Below are positions 51,316 to 56,445 of a DNA stretch of 64,000 bases, in pieces (the stretch's first letter is position 1; every line of letters starts with the position of its first letter). The notes beneath the pieces were generated by a model that made no database searches, was not told where the DNA came from, and saw only the letters and a program-made list of their open reading frames with translations. The stretch lies in the sequence record SRR31156797_5325. The stretch is one strand, 5' to 3'. Made by a program: the position numbers and the translations under genes.

Positions 51316-52258
51316 AGCGTAATTTTAACTCCTGAGGATGAGGATCTAGGTATCGCTGTTGCATTAGATATGCATCGGGATACAGGGTTAAATAGTGTTT
51401 AATCAGAGTTAAGGGCGCAAGCAAAGGCAATACACCGTTACGGTAGTCGTGAATCACTTGCGTCAGTTCCATTTTCTGTGATTTATCCAATGAACGCTTA
51501 AAGTACCCCTGGATGTGCATAAGAACATTGGTATGGTTCTTACGGCTCGCTTTGGTTTTGAGAGCCTGCATCAACTGTAACCGATATGTCTCGATAAACT
51601 CTTGTGTGGAATATTTTGCCACATTTGCCACTAGGCCACCTAACGCTCTGTACGAAAGTGGATGATGGGCCATCAAAGTCAGCTTGTAACGAGAGTGAAA
51701 CTCGACCACTTTGCCTGCTGTTGGGTTGTTGCCTAATGTCTGATGAAAATCATACAAACAGTAAACTCGGGTAAAGAAGTTTTCTCTGATTACCGCGTCA
51801 TTCAGCCGGCCATCTTCTTCGATTGGCAACCAAGGAATCTGCTCCATGAGCTTTTGGGTATAAAGGCCGACGCCATTCTTTTCAGCATGATGCTCACTGT
51901 ATACCTTTACTTTCTCCATTCCACAGGTTGGAGATTTGGCGCACACAATATAACCGCAAAGTGCTTGTTGCTTCAGTTCAGAGACGACCTTATTCGAGTA
52001 ATCAACGAGTTTGTCGGTATGGTCTTTGGTTTGATCTTTTGTTTCAACCAAGGCAATACGGTCTTGATCAGTGATCAGCCGAATCGCTGGACGAGGCACA
52101 GGCAGCCCCATACCCACTTCGGGACACACAGGAATGAACTCAAAGTGCGGCATCAGTTCTTTGAGCACAAATTGACTGGCTTTATGCCCACCATCAAACC
52201 GAACTTTCTCACCCAGAACACATGCACTAATACCAAGGCGAATTGCTTCTCTGTCCAT
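51305..52258 (-). CDS. ybgA: DUF523 + DUF1722 (YbgA-like) protein
   Basis: GISAC...RFDG, CPE, KSPTCG; FHSRYKL, NVLMHIQGYFK. Confidence 0.88.
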   Translation of the reverse strand: MDREAIRLGISACVLGEKVRFDGGHKASQFVLKELMPHFEFIPVCPEVGMGLPVPRPAIRLITDQDRIALVETKDQTKDHTDKLVDYSNKVVSELKQQALCGYIVCAKSPTCGMEKVKVYSEHHAEKNGVGLYTQKLMEQIPWLPIEEDGRLNDAVIRENFFTRVYCLYDFHQTLGNNPTAGKVVEFHSRYKLTLMAHHPLSYRALGGLVANVAKYSTQEFIETYRLQLMQALKTKASRKNHTNVLMHIQGYFKRSLDKSQKMELTQVIHDYRNGVLPLLAPLTLIKHYLTLYPDAYLMQQRYLDPHPQELKLRYGL

Positions 52259-52270
52259 CTTAGCCCCCAG

Positions 52271-52343
52271 TTATACAAATAAAAACCTTGTACAATTTAT
52301 AGCACACTGGTGCCGGGTTGTACAAATTAAAAAATCGTACAAC
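52271..52343. promoter_or_regulatory. Repeated TACAA operator sites upstream of the ybgA-merR-phr operon
   Basis: TACAA at 52274, 52291, 52321 and 52338 (spacing 17, 30, 17 bp). Confidence 0.65.
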
Positions 52344-52433
52344 TAATGCTAACGTTTGCACTAATCGATTGCCCTAGCAGTTTCAACACTTTTAGTTATC
52401 AACAACCATCAAAGATGACATTGTCGTTTTTTT

Positions 52434-52449
52434 TGTGACTATGGTCTCA
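52434..52449 (+). promoter_or_regulatory. Putative CRP site upstream of deoD
   Basis: TGTGA-CTATGG-TCTCA, one mismatch from TGTGA-N6-TCACA. Confidence 0.65.
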
Positions 52450-52564
52450 AGAACACCTCTGGTTACTCACTATTATTGCCCCAACAGACAAGTTCACAGT
52501 CAACACAAATAGTAATTACTAATCTTCTACTATTAAAAAGGCTGATTATTTTTGGAGAGTACTT

Positions 52565-53275
52565 ATGGCAACCCCACATATTAACGCGCAACCTGGTGAT
52601 TTCGCTGAAACCGTTCTAATGCCTGGTGATCCTTTACGTGCAAAGTTTATCGCTGATACCTACCTTGAAGATGTAAAACAAGTATGTGATGTACGTAATA
52701 TGTTTGGTTACACCGGTACTTACAAAGGTAAGAAGGTATCGGTAATGGGCCACGGTATGGGTATCCCTTCATGCTGTATTTACGTTCACGAACTGATTGC
52801 TGAATATGGCGTTAAAAACGTTATTCGCGTTGGTAGCTGTGGTGCTGTACGTGATGATGTAAAACTGATGGACGTTGTTATCGGTATGGGTGCTTCAACA
52901 GACTCTAAAGTTAACCGTATCCGTTTCAGCAACCATGACTTTGCAGCAATTGCTGATTTTGACCTACTAGAAACGGCAGTAGCACAAGCTCGTGCTCAAG
53001 AAGTTTCAATTAAAGTCGGTAACGTATTCTCTGCAGATTTGTTCTACACTCCTGAGCCAGAAATTTTCGAAAAAATGAAAAACCTAGGTATTCTAGGTGT
53101 TGATATGGAAGCAGCAGGTATTTATGGTGTTGCAGCAGATTTGGGTGCTCGCGCACTGACTATTCTAACGGTTTCTGACCACATCATCCGCGGCGAAAAA
53201 CTGAGCGCAGAAGATCGTCAAAAATCATTCCATGAAATGATGCAAGTTGCTCTTGAAACAGCGATCAACATGTAA
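52565..53275 (+). CDS. deoD: Purine nucleoside phosphorylase
   Basis: [35 protein letters not shown]. Confidence 0.96.
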
Positions 53276-53340
53276 CTCTTTTTATACTAGGTTGCTAAGC
53301 TCCGCCCTTAGCAACCGCTTTATTTCCCGAGGGGGCGATC

Positions 53341-54810
53341 GTGTCGACCGACCAACTACCTGCGGATGCTGATGGCTTGCAGCTCAACTTTTGTAAAACA
53401 TTGGCGTGTGACAACTTTGGTTTGAGTGATGCCGAACGTTATGTTCTGCAACATGCAAATCCTAAGCGTCCAACGATGGTTTGTCGTGAATGCGGTGCTT
53501 TCCCCCCCTTACTTAATAACCAAGAAGTTCTCAATGAACTTATGCGCTTGCGCCAACTGCACAGTGATGGCTTACCCGCCTGTCGTAACTCAGAGTGTGA
53601 AAACTCTGGGCTTTCTGTACATACCCATAAACACCTTTATCATGCATTTGGCTATAGTGGTGACCGCCAGCGTTATCGCTGTAAAGCTTGTCACTCAACA
53701 TTTGTCGACAAATGGTCCGGAGTAAACAAAAAGCTCGTATTCCAAGAAAACCTTTTTGGTCTGCTTTTCATGGGCTATTCGGTCAGAGAGGTGTGCAGAA
53801 AACTCAGTATCAACCCTAAAACTTTTTATGACCATATCGACCATATTGCAAGCCGCTGCCGCCGTAAGCTTGCCATGGTAGATGCTCGCTGGGTCAATCA
53901 TGCCAAAAGTTTTGAGTTTTCCTCCCAATACATGTCGTTACAACCCAAAAGTAATAATGGGGTATTTTGGATCGCCACCGGTGAGAGACACACTGGATAC
54001 ATACTGTGCCAGCACGTTAACTATTCAGCGACAGAAGAACCTGTAGGCCCGGTTGATCACGACCCATATCAGACACCAGCGAGATACGTTTCTCGTGATT
54101 ACAGTGCTGAGACGCGAGCGCCTCAAGCGCAAGCTTCTCCAATCTTACGTGAGAGAATCGATCAGCAGTACCAAACCATTCTTGCTCGAGGCAATGTAGA
54201 GGACCCGTTGGGTAACTTAACGCGATTTAACTACCCATCCAAAGGTGCGTTAATCCGTCCCCCTTATACTTCTTACGCGCATTATCTCCACGTATTAGAT
54301 ATGTGTGACGATTCAAAACCGATTTCCGTCTCTATGCCTCAAGATCCACTACTGCGTTCTGCAGCATTAAGCGTTTGTTTACCCAGAATCAAGCGTCAGA
54401 ATGTTGACTTACTGTACGTAGAAGAAGATGCCAATTGGGACAATAGCCAAACTATCGACAAAACGGATATTGTCCATATGGGTTGGTGGAGAGATCGTTG
54501 GGCAATCGCTCACCAAGAAAATGGAGCCAAAGGAGTCTGCCACTTAGCAGGCCCTAACCCTACTCCAGAACACTGGTTAGAAAAGGCATCGGTGAAACAA
54601 ATCGAATTCTATCAGCAACGATTCCAAGTGTTATTTGAATCATTTATCAACGAGCCTAGACGCAAATTACGTCCTGGAGGAATACAACCCTTGCTGGACA
54701 TTTACCGTGCATGGCACAATCTATGCTATCAAGATAAACATGGAACCACTGCGGCACAGAATTTAGGCTTAACTCAAGCCCCATTAACACTAAAAGAGCT
54801 GTTATCTTAG
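53341..54810 (+). CDS. Zn-ribbon/HTH protein of IS1-like transposase ancestry, probably inactive (domesticated)
   Basis: Cys pairs; InsA-like RQRYRCKACHSTF; HTH GYSVREVCRKLSINPKTFY; C-terminal WHN...TAAQNLGL; no IRs seen. Confidence 0.7.
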   Translation: MSTDQLPADADGLQLNFCKTLACDNFGLSDAERYVLQHANPKRPTMVCRECGAFPPLLNNQEVLNELMRLRQLHSDGLPACRNSECENSGLSVHTHKHLYHAFGYSGDRQRYRCKACHSTFVDKWSGVNKKLVFQENLFGLLFMGYSVREVCRKLSINPKTFYDHIDHIASRCRRKLAMVDARWVNHAKSFEFSSQYMSLQPKSNNGVFWIATGERHTGYILCQHVNYSATEEPVGPVDHDPYQTPARYVSRDYSAETRAPQAQASPILRERIDQQYQTILARGNVEDPLGNLTRFNYPSKGALIRPPYTSYAHYLHVLDMCDDSKPISVSMPQDPLLRSAALSVCLPRIKRQNVDLLYVEEDANWDNSQTIDKTDIVHMGWWRDRWAIAHQENGAKGVCHLAGPNPTPEHWLEKASVKQIEFYQQRFQVLFESFINEPRRKLRPGGIQPLLDIYRAWHNLCYQDKHGTTAAQNLGLTQAPLTLKELLS

Positions 54811-54957
54811 CTCTGTTGTCGTCGGAGTGTGAAGCAGCACAAATTGTTTACAAGCGGATGCTAAAAAACGTATGGTTTGTTATTCAAATAGTGCTTAATA
54901 AAACTGATACAGCACCACAGATTACTGTATCAGTAAGATAAGCTTAGGGAATTTGAG

Positions 54958-56445
54958 TTGGACCAAAGCCAGTACCTTTTATTATCAGAAATTAATCAGC
55001 TTAGAAATCGCGTAGAATCTGAGCCAGATTCGGTGTTGGCGCTCGCTAGTAAATCTCTCACCCATGCAAAACAAATACAATTTCCCGATGGTATTATCCA
55101 ATCATTAATTGTGATGTGTCGTGCCGCTTGGTGCAGTATGGACTACCGTCGCGGGCTCAAATACATCAAAGAAGCTCACCAGTACCAAAATAGCTTAGAG
55201 ACCGATGAAGCCCTGCCGGAGATCCTCCACCTCTACGCTTTAAACTATTGGGGGCAAGCCAAATACTATACTGCCCAGCAATATTGGATTAATGCTCTCG
55301 AACAGTCGGCACTTGTCGACGAGGTTGAAATCCAGATTGAGAGCCTGATTGGTTTGGGAAATGTCTGGCGAATCACTAAACATTACGATCTAGCCTGTTC
55401 AACTCATCAGTTAGCGGCAAAAGTTGCCCGCAATGTCCGCATTGCCTGGTTAGAGGGCAAAGCGCGTATTTTATGGTCATGGGACCTGTACTTGTTAGAG
55501 CAGTATGTCGATATGCTCACGGTACTTGACGGCGCAGACGAAGCCCTAGTGGGTCATCCTGATAAAACCTGGCATGCCGAAGTGTGGGACTTTAGAGGCC
55601 TTGCGTTGTTAGGCTTAGAGCGAGTAGAAGACGCAGAAGCCGCCACTCAGAAGGCTCACAATTTGGCGGTGGCGCACAACCTGTCTTGGATGAAGGCGCA
55701 TTCCTATATCAGTCGCGCCAGAATCGAGCTATTGAGAAAAAACCTCAGTAAAGCGTCACATTTACTTGCATCTGCTGAACAAACGGCCAAAAACTTCGAT
55801 AACGGTGAACTACTTTCACAAATTTGTTATCAACAATCTCTGGTGGCAGAAGAAAACGGTGATGACAAAACCGCATTAGAAGCATTTAAAAAATATCGCC
55901 AGTATTCTCTTGATATGCTGCATGAACAAACCATGAGACTAGGGTCAGACAAAGCTCGCTCTTCTAAACGTCAACTTGATCAACGCGCACGTAAGCTGAT
56001 TAACCGTATCCGTAACCAGCACGAGTACAGTCCGGAAAAGAACCTATCCAATGTTGTTCCTGAAAACTACTGGTGGGAACAGATGGTGCTGCATAAAGTT
56101 GAACTGGCAGAGTCCACCCACTCAGTGATTGTGATTCGCCACACCAACCCGTTATTTTTAGACGCTTGTACCGAACTCGTACACTCTTTGTGCTCTGCTC
56201 AAGACATTCTTTCGCGTCTGAGCCCGAATACGTTAGGCTTACTCATTGGCGAACGCTCGGACAGTGTACAACCGATATTCGATGTGTTGGGCAAAATGCT
56301 TGAGATCTACCCGTGGGAAAGAAGGAAGCTGTTCGGAGTGCCACCTAAAGCCGTGCTTTACACTATATTGAGTTTTCCATTTACCCTTGAGCAACTTGAA
56401 GAAATTGATTTAGAGGAAGAGTCTGATGGAAACGCTACTGAATAA
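54958..56445 (+). CDS. TPR-repeat protein with a probable degenerate GGDEF-like C-terminus
   Basis: TPR-like helices (SLIGLGNVW, WDFRGLALL); QDILSRLSPNTLGLLI occupies the position of the D..xRxGGEEF element. Confidence 0.7.
   Translation: MDQSQYLLLSEINQLRNRVESEPDSVLALASKSLTHAKQIQFPDGIIQSLIVMCRAAWCSMDYRRGLKYIKEAHQYQNSLETDEALPEILHLYALNYWGQAKYYTAQQYWINALEQSALVDEVEIQIESLIGLGNVWRITKHYDLACSTHQLAAKVARNVRIAWLEGKARILWSWDLYLLEQYVDMLTVLDGADEALVGHPDKTWHAEVWDFRGLALLGLERVEDAEAATQKAHNLAVAHNLSWMKAHSYISRARIELLRKNLSKASHLLASAEQTAKNFDNGELLSQICYQQSLVAEENGDDKTALEAFKKYRQYSLDMLHEQTMRLGSDKARSSKRQLDQRARKLINRIRNQHEYSPEKNLSNVVPENYWWEQMVLHKVELAESTHSVIVIRHTNPLFLDACTELVHSLCSAQDILSRLSPNTLGLLIGERSDSVQPIFDVLGKMLEIYPWERRKLFGVPPKAVLYTILSFPFTLEQLEEIDLEEESDGNATE

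Follow-up and report, generated by a model that had tools for sequence, protein, structure and literature searches.

It is well known that tamed transposases have given rise to regulators in eukaryotes; in bacteria, few such cases are known. The deo genes and other genes of nucleoside uptake and catabolism are controlled by regulators of the CytR, DeoR, and SorC types that are encoded beside them. Here, we analyze an open reading frame (ORF) of 489 amino acids (aa) in a 64,000-nucleotide (nt) stretch of sequence record SRR31156797_5325, the whole of which we call the window. The ORF lies directly behind deoD, the gene for purine nucleoside phosphorylase, and we put the probability at roughly 0.6 that its product is a domesticated transposase of the Asp-Asp-Glu (DDE) type and the IS1 superfamily that now acts as a DNA-binding regulator tied to purine nucleoside catabolism. 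Its homology to transposases, the loss of the catalytic triad and of mobility, its synteny, the purifying selection on it, and the parallel coupling of its paralogues to other purine-salvage genes all bear on this reading.

The likeness of the window protein to the CytR, DeoR, and SorC-type regulators lies in the proposed role only; their folds are those of LacI, DeoR, and SorC, with no sequence relation to the 489-aa ORF. In IS1, the zinc-binding motif and the helix-turn-helix (HTH) bind the ends of the element, and InsA uses these motifs, in the account given by PMC12903888. The window protein resembles the IS1 proteins InsAB' and InsA (PF03400, NF033558) in its domain order, with an N-terminal zinc motif and then an HTH, and, by way of a clade of ~600-aa transposases described below, in its 'YYNF...TPA' tail and the scaffold of its catalytic core. 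Unlike IS1, it is twice the size of the classical InsAB', carries an extra first zinc ribbon, has no frameshift, DDE triad, or inverted repeats, is encoded by a single-copy, syntenic gene, and scores far under the family cut-offs. The TldR proteins, described in bioRxiv 10.1101/2023.11.30.569447 as TnpB-derived, nuclease-dead, RNA-guided repressors kept by host or phage, offer the same passage from a transposon nuclease without catalysis to a transcription factor. They differ in their RuvC/TnpB fold and RNA guide, whereas the window protein is of the DDE type with a zinc-ribbon/HTH head, its function is one we infer, and no guide RNA is suggested (an Rfam scan of positions 52000-56000 found nothing). 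TnpA-REP, a domesticated Y1 transposase (PMC8266576), is likewise a prokaryotic transposase that became a single-copy host gene; as reported in that source, it uses Y1 (HUH) chemistry, is still active on REP sequences, and lies outside metabolic operons.

The motifs that an earlier note on this DNA had read from the ORF are all present: Cys pairs, an InsA-like zinc ribbon (CRNSEC at C81-C86 and RQRYRCKAC ending at C117), an HTH, and a transposase-like tail (YRAWHN and TAAQNLGLTQAPLTLKELL), together with FEFSSQY at 191-197, ISVSMPQ at 328-334, and QIEFYQQ at 420-426. In an alignment of 25 orthologues, the long part after the HTH is well conserved and the Cys pairs are invariant; they make up two CxxxxC...CxxC zinc ribbons, C18/C23 with C48/C51 and C81/C86 with C114/C117. 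The Cys residues of the first ribbon are kept in nearly all of the 106 superfamily members that we aligned, and this ribbon aligns with 93.5% probability to the CPxC...CPxxxC region of PF03400 IS1 transposases. The second ribbon scores 24.6 bits against NF050000, the IS1/IS1595 zinc domain, where the cut-off is 28; the Pfam match to the HTH at residues 143-171 lies below its cut-off, as do the hints of zinc ribbons. The NCBIfam IS1 transposase model NF033558 matches residues 105-220 at an E-value (E) of 1.3e-7, with 31.8 bits against a cut-off of 100. A Pfam scan of the ORF found no DDE family, with PF03400 absent at E up to 10, and both the 100 bits of NF033558 and the gathering score of PF03400 that mark membership of the IS1 family are missed. 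At the level of motifs, the protein does appear to carry the N-terminal zinc finger and HTH of that family.

Among feature neighbours in the ESM Atlas, the nearest cluster assigned to Pfam is IS1/PF03400 (0.89), which we treat as a lead. Searches of the PDB returned nothing with the single protein and, with the family profile, only C2H2 zinc-finger look-alikes of the second ribbon. PADLOC gave no hit, for the ORF or three relatives, that would place them among anti-phage defence systems, and PHROGs yielded small hits to transposase N-termini and none to defence.

The description of the protein as IS1-like holds at the level of the superfamily, but its nearest active relatives are a separate ~600-aa clade and not classical IS1. 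When we searched 1.84 billion representatives with a profile, 676 matched at E up to 1e-3, and these split into short forms of ~455-515 aa and a clade of ~570-650 aa. This ~600-aa clade, which has no name known to us, shares with the window protein the succession of zinc ribbon, zinc ribbon, HTH, and core and the same HTH motif, NPKT(F/L)Y; it alone has an Asp-Asp-Asp triad, terminal inverted repeats (TIRs), often a methyltransferase as cargo, an insert of ~40-50 aa behind strand 5, and a loop ahead of the tail that is longer. The 106-sequence alignment, which we used for column counts, holds 61 representatives of this clade and 26 Vibrionaceae sequences. In the ~600-aa clade, the first Asp is present in 61/61 (within 'DRQ..Y..NW') and the second in 60/61 (within 'F.LDQD'), and the third acid, within 'IDRFF', is Asp in 53/61 and Asn in 5, with an Arg at +7 in 60/61.

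To place these columns on IS1, we used a 33-sequence alignment of ~470-aa IS1-family transposases carrying PF03400. With hhalign, the N-terminal head of the ~600-aa clade matches this alignment at 93.5% probability and the C-terminal halves match at 95.1% (E 3e-8, 228 columns). In the C-terminal alignment, the Asp of the IS1 'F.SDxW' coincides with the first Asp of 'LDQD', the Glu of 'FIERLN...R' coincides with the Asp of 'IDRFF...R', and the 'YYNF...TPAM' tails are matched. The first Asp is assigned on the basis of strand order and its invariance in the ~600-aa clade. The C-terminal half of the window family aligns in turn to the ~600-aa clade with 100% probability over all 318 columns (E 3.4e-41), and full-length hhalign of the family against the PF03400 proteins aligned the N-terminal head only. 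A run in global mode, whose alignments were untrustworthy, had put the first Asp of IS1 at D181; we rejected this placement because the NCBIfam IS1 match is nearly gapless over 105-220, which puts the IS1 Asp at ~192-196, and because local C-terminal alignments agree on that position.

Mapped in this way, the triad of the window protein is not intact. The earlier note had judged by eye that the first two catalytic acids are replaced, and hhalign agrees, with Q196 at the first position and P333 at the second; it had also taken the Glu to remain, which is true of E422 in the window sequence but not of the family, where Glu is found in just 6 of the 26 Vibrionaceae sequences (S7/E6/A2/Q2 and others) and is not conserved. 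Position 196 is similarly variable among these 26 (H6/N6/D4/S3 and others), no conserved acid occurs anywhere in columns 186-204, and position 333 is Pro in 26/26. A further alignment, with 55 sequences, gave the same picture: throughout the 45 short forms, positions 1 and 3 are either lost or not conserved, and the second is Glu in most short-form clades and Pro in the clade linked to deoD. Inactivation therefore came before the short forms split into several paralogous subfamilies. Judged by its sequence, the window protein is catalytically dead, its Asp-Asp-Glu triad having been lost.

The ~600-aa proteins are real transposases of mobile elements, rare and scattered in their distribution. 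Scanning metagenomes, we confirmed 528 relatives and kept 80 of them. In 5/6 of the long loci examined, inverted repeats of 26-49 nt enclose either the ~600-aa gene and the gene behind it or the ~600-aa gene alone. A shared TIR core, CACAAAGGTGTTG, around which the repeat extends to 40-50 nt, occurs in 15/218 loci and is paired (plus strand upstream, minus strand downstream) in 8. Core to core, simple elements span ~1.9-2.0 kb (loci L160, L185, L188, and L200), one element with a paired core spans 2.7 kb (L178), and forms with cargo span ~4.9-5.3 kb (L139, L155, and L186). As cargo, these forms carry a DNA methyltransferase or a type IIG-like restriction-modification enzyme, from several different families; by our count, such a gene is the nearest downstream ORF in 14/35 loci with at least 1.5 kb of downstream sequence, it is a methyltransferase in 3/4 genome loci of the clade, and two further ~600-aa loci have an XamI-type endonuclease. 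Among 401 Pseudomonadota genomes sampled, three carry full-length ~600-aa copies, none of them of the Vibrionaceae type; one of the three has two copies and another has one intact and one broken copy. A family of insertion sequences (ISs) or transposons (Tns) with a ~600-aa IS1-superfamily transposase, an Asp-Asp-Asp triad, and TIRs is apparently undescribed.

Several further observations concern these mobile relatives. Element coordinates are 4893-10052 in L139, 408-6064 in L150, 93-5386 in L155, 2975-8053 in L187, and 793-6256 in L203. A DEDD (RNase T/DnaQ-like) exonuclease is fused C-terminally in four long relatives (P0165, P0171, P0248, and P0265) and N-terminally in one broken genomic copy (L127, 2325-3914). 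We had also considered that the ~600-aa proteins might be restriction nucleases paired with methyltransferases, an idea that was dropped given that the TIRs enclose gene pairs.

The window gene itself bears none of the marks of mobility. As the earlier note had it, the ORF is intact, with a GC content of 0.45-0.47 that resembles its neighbours, and its flanks show no target duplication and no inverted or direct repeats beyond 12-18-mers of chance size. Within the window, the TIR core of the mobile relatives occurs no more often than chance would give, and in three Vibrio genomes it has no exact copy; with one mismatch allowed, it occurs 18, 9, and 14 times in these genomes against 10, 6, and 8 for a reversed-pattern control, an excess that is at most weak. 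The ORF has neither the TIRs or target duplication nor the several copies or varying position of a mobile element.

Its place in the genome is fixed instead. A word-indexed search found 146 relatives; among the 120 listed, at 48-95% identity and ~489 aa, the named ones come from Vibrio, Photobacterium, or Salinivibrio, and when each species is represented by a single genome, a relative is encoded in 262 stretches. The gene was matched in 258/301 Vibrionaceae genomes, mostly once each, and three genomes searched whole gave one match each; among 400 Gammaproteobacteria sampled, hits to short forms were too few for neighbourhoods outside Vibrionaceae to be read. Short-form relatives occur in Proteus and Agarivorans as well. 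To count synteny, we took the best 80 loci (all Vibrio) and 12 more distant Vibrionaceae loci (55-64% identity). Co-oriented deoD is directly upstream in 80/80 of the former and deoD is adjacent upstream in 12/12 of the latter, or 92/92 overall. The ratio of non-synonymous to synonymous substitution rates (dN/dS) has a median of 0.026 over 134 unsaturated pairs, compared with 0.024 for deoD, and is 0.036 against the closest relative, indicating strong purifying selection. The deoD-linked orthologues form one clade with short branches.

These results bear out the earlier note's view of a domesticated and probably catalytically dead protein: the triad is not intact, the locus is fixed, dN/dS is ~0.03, and mobile relatives with an Asp triad exist. 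That note had named an intact triad, multiple copies with inverted repeats, and a patchy, non-syntenic distribution as observations that would speak against it, and we found none of them. The protein has the homology to transposases of real mobile elements and the fixed locus under purifying selection that a domesticated transposase should have. Because there are true mobile relatives with an Asp triad and TIRs, 'exapted' is a sound description; exaptation rather than mobility is supported, but the meaningful neighbour is deoD and not the GGDEF gene further downstream.

The coupling to purine salvage is repeated by paralogues. We searched the 301 Vibrionaceae genomes with a profile of non-orthologous short forms and found second copies in ~40 of them (our count of genomes with at least two matches); neighbourhoods were read at the best 13 second-copy loci and at one 5'-nucleotidase locus found earlier. 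At 7 of the best 13, the paralogue lies 31-107 nt behind a co-oriented 5'-nucleotidase gene (Metallophos and 5_nucleotid_C), bringing the loci of this kind to 8. At 5 of the 13, it lies 217-424 nt behind a co-oriented adenosine deaminase gene, add; the gene before add encodes a NupC nucleoside transporter (E 4.5e-130 to 3TIJ) at the one locus checked, and the other four have the same C-terminal peptide before add, as judged by eye. The remaining paralogue sits between a symporter gene and Endonuclease I. Like the window protein, the paralogues linked to 5'-nucleotidase and adenosine deaminase are dead forms. In a tree rooted on the ~600-aa clade, the adenosine-deaminase-linked, deoD-linked, and 5'-nucleotidase-linked proteins fall into separate clades with SH-aLRT values of 100, 99, and 100, and so each subfamily is tied to a different step of the path from AMP through adenosine and inosine to hypoxanthine. 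Read by eye, 8/8 of the linked 5'-nucleotidases have N-terminal export-type signals and the paralogues do not, making a physical complex unlikely; this mismatch argues for a link via gene regulation or metabolites.

The promoters of the paralogue-linked 5'-nucleotidase genes (L269-L276) share a box, CACTCAAAAGGTAAC, ~60-160 nt before the start codons, and in most of them a CRP-like TGTGA site comes after it. The TIR core of the mobile relatives likewise contains AAAGGT.

At the window locus, the promoter of deoD is strikingly conserved among the 21 Vibrio species aligned, with a CRP-like site and two TCAACA boxes, and at least 80% of them keep the block TTTCAACA-N4-TTNGTTATCAA. In the window, the boxes read TCAACAC-WWWT-AGTWAT, and no third copy of this 17-mer pattern, itself drawn from the two boxes, occurs in the 64 kb. 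TCAACAC is the complement of GTGTTGA, the end of the mobile relatives' TIR core; GTGTTGA occurs 17 times in the 64 kb, 2 of them within the 306-nt deoD promoter region, a post hoc observation. We regard the boxes as a candidate operator because of this likeness to the TIR core and because the NPKTFY motif of the HTH is common to the window protein and the mobile clade.

Downstream, the spacer between deoD and the ORF (53276-53340) holds a stem whose sequence differs between species while its pairing is preserved; compensatory changes keep it in 44/45 orthologous spacers (L001-L045), with L040 lacking a stem. All 45 have CCCGAGGGGG(A/C)GAT(C/A/T)GTG or a near variant, GTG start included, and in the window a strong Shine-Dalgarno sequence, GAGGGGG, precedes the GTG. 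A leaky stem-loop followed by a near-invariant ribosome-binding site would be in keeping with a gene expressed at a low level by read-through from the deoD promoter. Contigs from RNA libraries of one seawater study (90-99% identity) span both junctions of the gene and portions of the gene itself, which is weak support for expression and proves neither transcription nor a single transcript.

On the reading we prefer, the ORF descends from a DDE transposase of the IS1 superfamily. The DNA-binding head, with its two zinc ribbons and HTH, is retained along with the scaffold of the catalytic domain, and the Asp-Asp-Asp/Glu triad, the TIRs, and the ability to move are gone. Since then, the gene has passed vertically through Vibrionaceae in single copy, joined to the transcription unit of deoD. 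Most likely, its product now serves as a sequence-specific DNA-binding regulator of purine nucleoside catabolism whose foremost candidate target is deoD, and it would be made at low levels from its GTG start by read-through of the leaky deoD stem-loop; the former catalytic domain could serve in oligomerization and possibly in sensing a nucleoside or nucleotide. A bolder form of this proposal, which we offer tentatively and consider rather doubtful, is that a transposase tamed once in the gamma-proteobacteria gave rise to a family of transcription factors wiring purine salvage (5'-nucleotidase, nupC-add, and deoD), whose heads read TIR-like TCAACA/AAAGGT boxes and whose gutted pocket, formerly shaped for a DNA end and metal ions, became a nucleoside or nucleotide sensor.

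Several points weigh against the regulator. We infer its DNA binding, regulatory role, target, and ligand alike. CRP, CytR, or some other regulator could be the one that uses the TCAACA boxes, whose resemblance to the TIR core was noticed post hoc; the SorC/DeoR-type gene found behind the orthologue in distant Vibrionaceae could be the actual deo regulator there, and 43/301 Vibrionaceae genomes gave no match. On the structural side, the RNase-H-like fold of the catalytic domain is suggested by profile-profile alignment alone, the C-terminal half of the window family reaches 45% probability when compared directly with IS1, and the region of the first Asp aligns between IS1 and the ~600-aa clade with low confidence, so that its column is not tied directly to IS1. 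In the 25 orthologues, moreover, the acidic residues D181, D/E335, D376, D385, E438, and D453 are invariant, and because of these residues some other chemistry is conceivable for the window protein. It might still be an enzyme, a nuclease or recombinase with a rebuilt acidic active site that feeds nucleotide-nucleoside salvage from DNA or RNA. D181, D/E335, D385, E438, and D453 would suit such a site, as would the acid two residues past the lost second Asp, which is kept in all three clades, and the Glu at the second position in the 5'-nucleotidase and adenosine deaminase paralogues; a short-form relative adjoins Endonuclease I, and some long relatives carry fused DEDD exonucleases. We know of no RNase-H-fold enzyme that works without its strand-1 Asp, however, and as none of the 45 short forms examined departs from the pattern of lost or unconserved triad positions 1 and 3, and the deoD clade has Pro at the second position, we consider an enzyme unlikely.

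A slightly less probable role is that of a transposon tamer kept by the host, which would bind the ends of ~600-aa-family elements as InsA does and keep them from transposing or from expressing their restriction-modification cargo. The InsA-like zinc ribbon and HTH are retained, the NPKTFY motif is nearly identical to that of the mobile clade, and InsA binds IS1 ends via its zinc and HTH motifs in the description of PMC12903888. Yet the Vibrionaceae genomes of the phylum sample contain no ~600-aa element, matches to the TIR core are no more than expected by chance in the window and exceed the control weakly at best in three Vibrio genomes, and such a role leaves unexplained the fixed place behind deoD and the paralogues behind 5'-nucleotidase and adenosine deaminase genes. 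Constant adjacency to genes of catabolic enzymes in three subfamilies would also be expected of a protein that acts in nucleoside metabolism without touching DNA, by binding a metabolite or serving as a scaffold for the adjacent enzyme. We think this improbable, given that, of the parts derived from the transposase, the zinc ribbons and HTH show the strongest conservation and that the partner 5'-nucleotidases look exported and the paralogues cytoplasmic (by eye), making a stable complex unlikely. An ordinary, possibly active IS1-family transposase, as some sources name the orthologues and as the weak hit to the IS1 model might suggest, can be set aside with near certainty: the score is 31.8 against 100 bits, no DDE Pfam family and no TIRs were found, the triad is lost, 92/92 loci are fixed, and dN/dS is 0.03. 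The domesticated, DNA-binding regulator of purine nucleoside catabolism is thus the reading we prefer.

The names that the gene carries in databases give little guidance. Among orthologues P0006-P0119, most are called 'lactate dehydrogenase', a name for which we found no sequence support, and the others 'IS1 family transposase', 'transposase', or hypothetical protein. In the literature, excluding supplements, we found no description of this gene or family under V. cholerae locus tags, domesticated IS1, inactive prokaryotic DDE transposases, or passenger genes of IS1/IS1595. The V. cholerae orthologue is probably VCA0052, because vca0053 is a purine nucleoside phosphorylase (PMC8672173) and the gene order matches; in a table of PMC13376802, VCA0052 appears only as a 'hypothetical protein'.

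The features of the locus are collected in the table below. The earlier note had placed the ORF between deoD and a pair of diguanylate cyclase genes, which is right for deoD and for the TPR-GGDEF gene, but the gene in between, present in 77/80 Vibrio loci, encodes a 495-aa protein without a Pfam domain and without similarity to the adjacent TPR-GGDEF protein (E 0.92). The TPR-GGDEF gene itself is found in 76/80. Ten of the 12 distant Vibrionaceae loci (L219-L228) have an extra ORF of 325-352 aa 12-100 nt behind the orthologue and ahead of the 495-aa and GGDEF genes; scans of two of these ORFs identified them as SorC/DeoR-type regulators (PF04198 and an HTH; L219 6557-7612 and L222 6476-7453).

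Features of the deoD locus in the window (coordinates in nt from the first letter of the stretch).
Feature	Coordinates	Strand	Basis or remark
Box 1 upstream of deoD, TCAACACTTTTAGTTAT; candidate operator (lead only)	52383..52399	+	Conserved block
Box 2 upstream of deoD, TCAACACAAATAGTAAT; candidate operator (lead only)	52500..52516	+	49-65 nt before the deoD ATG
deoD, purine nucleoside phosphorylase	52565..53275	+	PF01048, E 5e-37
Stem-loop after deoD with weak U tract; putative leaky terminator or attenuator	53290..53316	+	
Near-invariant ribosome-binding site and GTG start, CCCGAGGGGGCGATCGTG	53327..53343	+	
489-aa ORF	53341..54810	+	GTG start; predicted DDE-dead, probably domesticated transposase of the IS1 superfamily
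Zinc ribbon 1 (C18, C23 ... C48, C51)	53392..53493	+	Cys invariant in 25 orthologues
Zinc ribbon 2 (C81, C86 ... C114, C117), InsA-like	53581..53691	+	Cys invariant in 25 orthologues
HTH, residues 143-171, recognition region INPKTFYDHI	53767..53853	+	Weak Pfam HTH hits, IS1 HTH alignment
Former catalytic domain, residues 188-489	53902..54807	+	Predicted RNase-H-like by homology only (profile alignment)
Q196, first catalytic Asp position	53926..53928	+	hhalign mapping to ~600-aa clade
P333, second catalytic Asp position	54337..54339	+	hhalign; aligned to the Asp of IS1 'SDxW'
E422, third catalytic position	54604..54606	+	hhalign; aligned to the Glu of IS1 'IERxN'
Sigma-54-type motif inside coding sequence, TGGCACAATCTATGC	54712..54726	+	Codons W458-C462
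495-aa gene, no recognised domain	54958..56445	+	No Pfam hit
TPR-GGDEF diguanylate cyclase, 525 aa	56426..58003	+	PF00990, E 4.6e-33

The sigma-54-type motif, TGGCAC-N5-ATGC, sits exactly on the codons W458-H-N-L-C462. An RpoN site given in PMC3439928 for V. cholerae VCA0051-48 maps inside the coding sequence of the orthologue (L039, 7372-7386). The codon for C462 is TGC in 70/81 sequences, where other Cys codons are TGC in 43%, and that for N460 is AAT in 73/81, compared with 46% for other Asn; at this position, YYNY is found in the mobile relatives. The conserved tail of the protein may thus double as coding sequence and as promoter of the downstream genes.

On the other side of deoD, the ybgA-deoD spacer (~52270-52350) contains repeated TGTACA/TATACA palindromes that are conserved in many Vibrio species. 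The palindromes, TTATACAAA-N8-TTGTACAA and TTGTACAAA-N9-CGTACAA, lie upstream of the divergent ybgA-merR-photolyase genes and may be the site of a MerR-type regulator.

The finding is broader than first noted and concerns a whole family of dead, tamed transposases whose genes are linked to those of purine salvage. For genome surveys, it corrects an annotation, as a host gene would otherwise be counted as an IS and inflate IS counts. The living mobile relatives make the steps of taming readable, with the loss of Asp 1 and Asp 3, the change of Asp 2 to Glu and then to Pro, and the loss of the insert and the TIRs. The coupling of three subfamilies to consecutive steps of purine salvage gives a misnamed or hypothetical gene a concrete, testable function. 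If the bolder proposal were true, this would be the first DDE-transposase-derived family of metabolite-sensing regulators in bacteria. The window gene would itself be a tamed case of the DDE type conserved across a bacterial family with major marine and pathogenic species.

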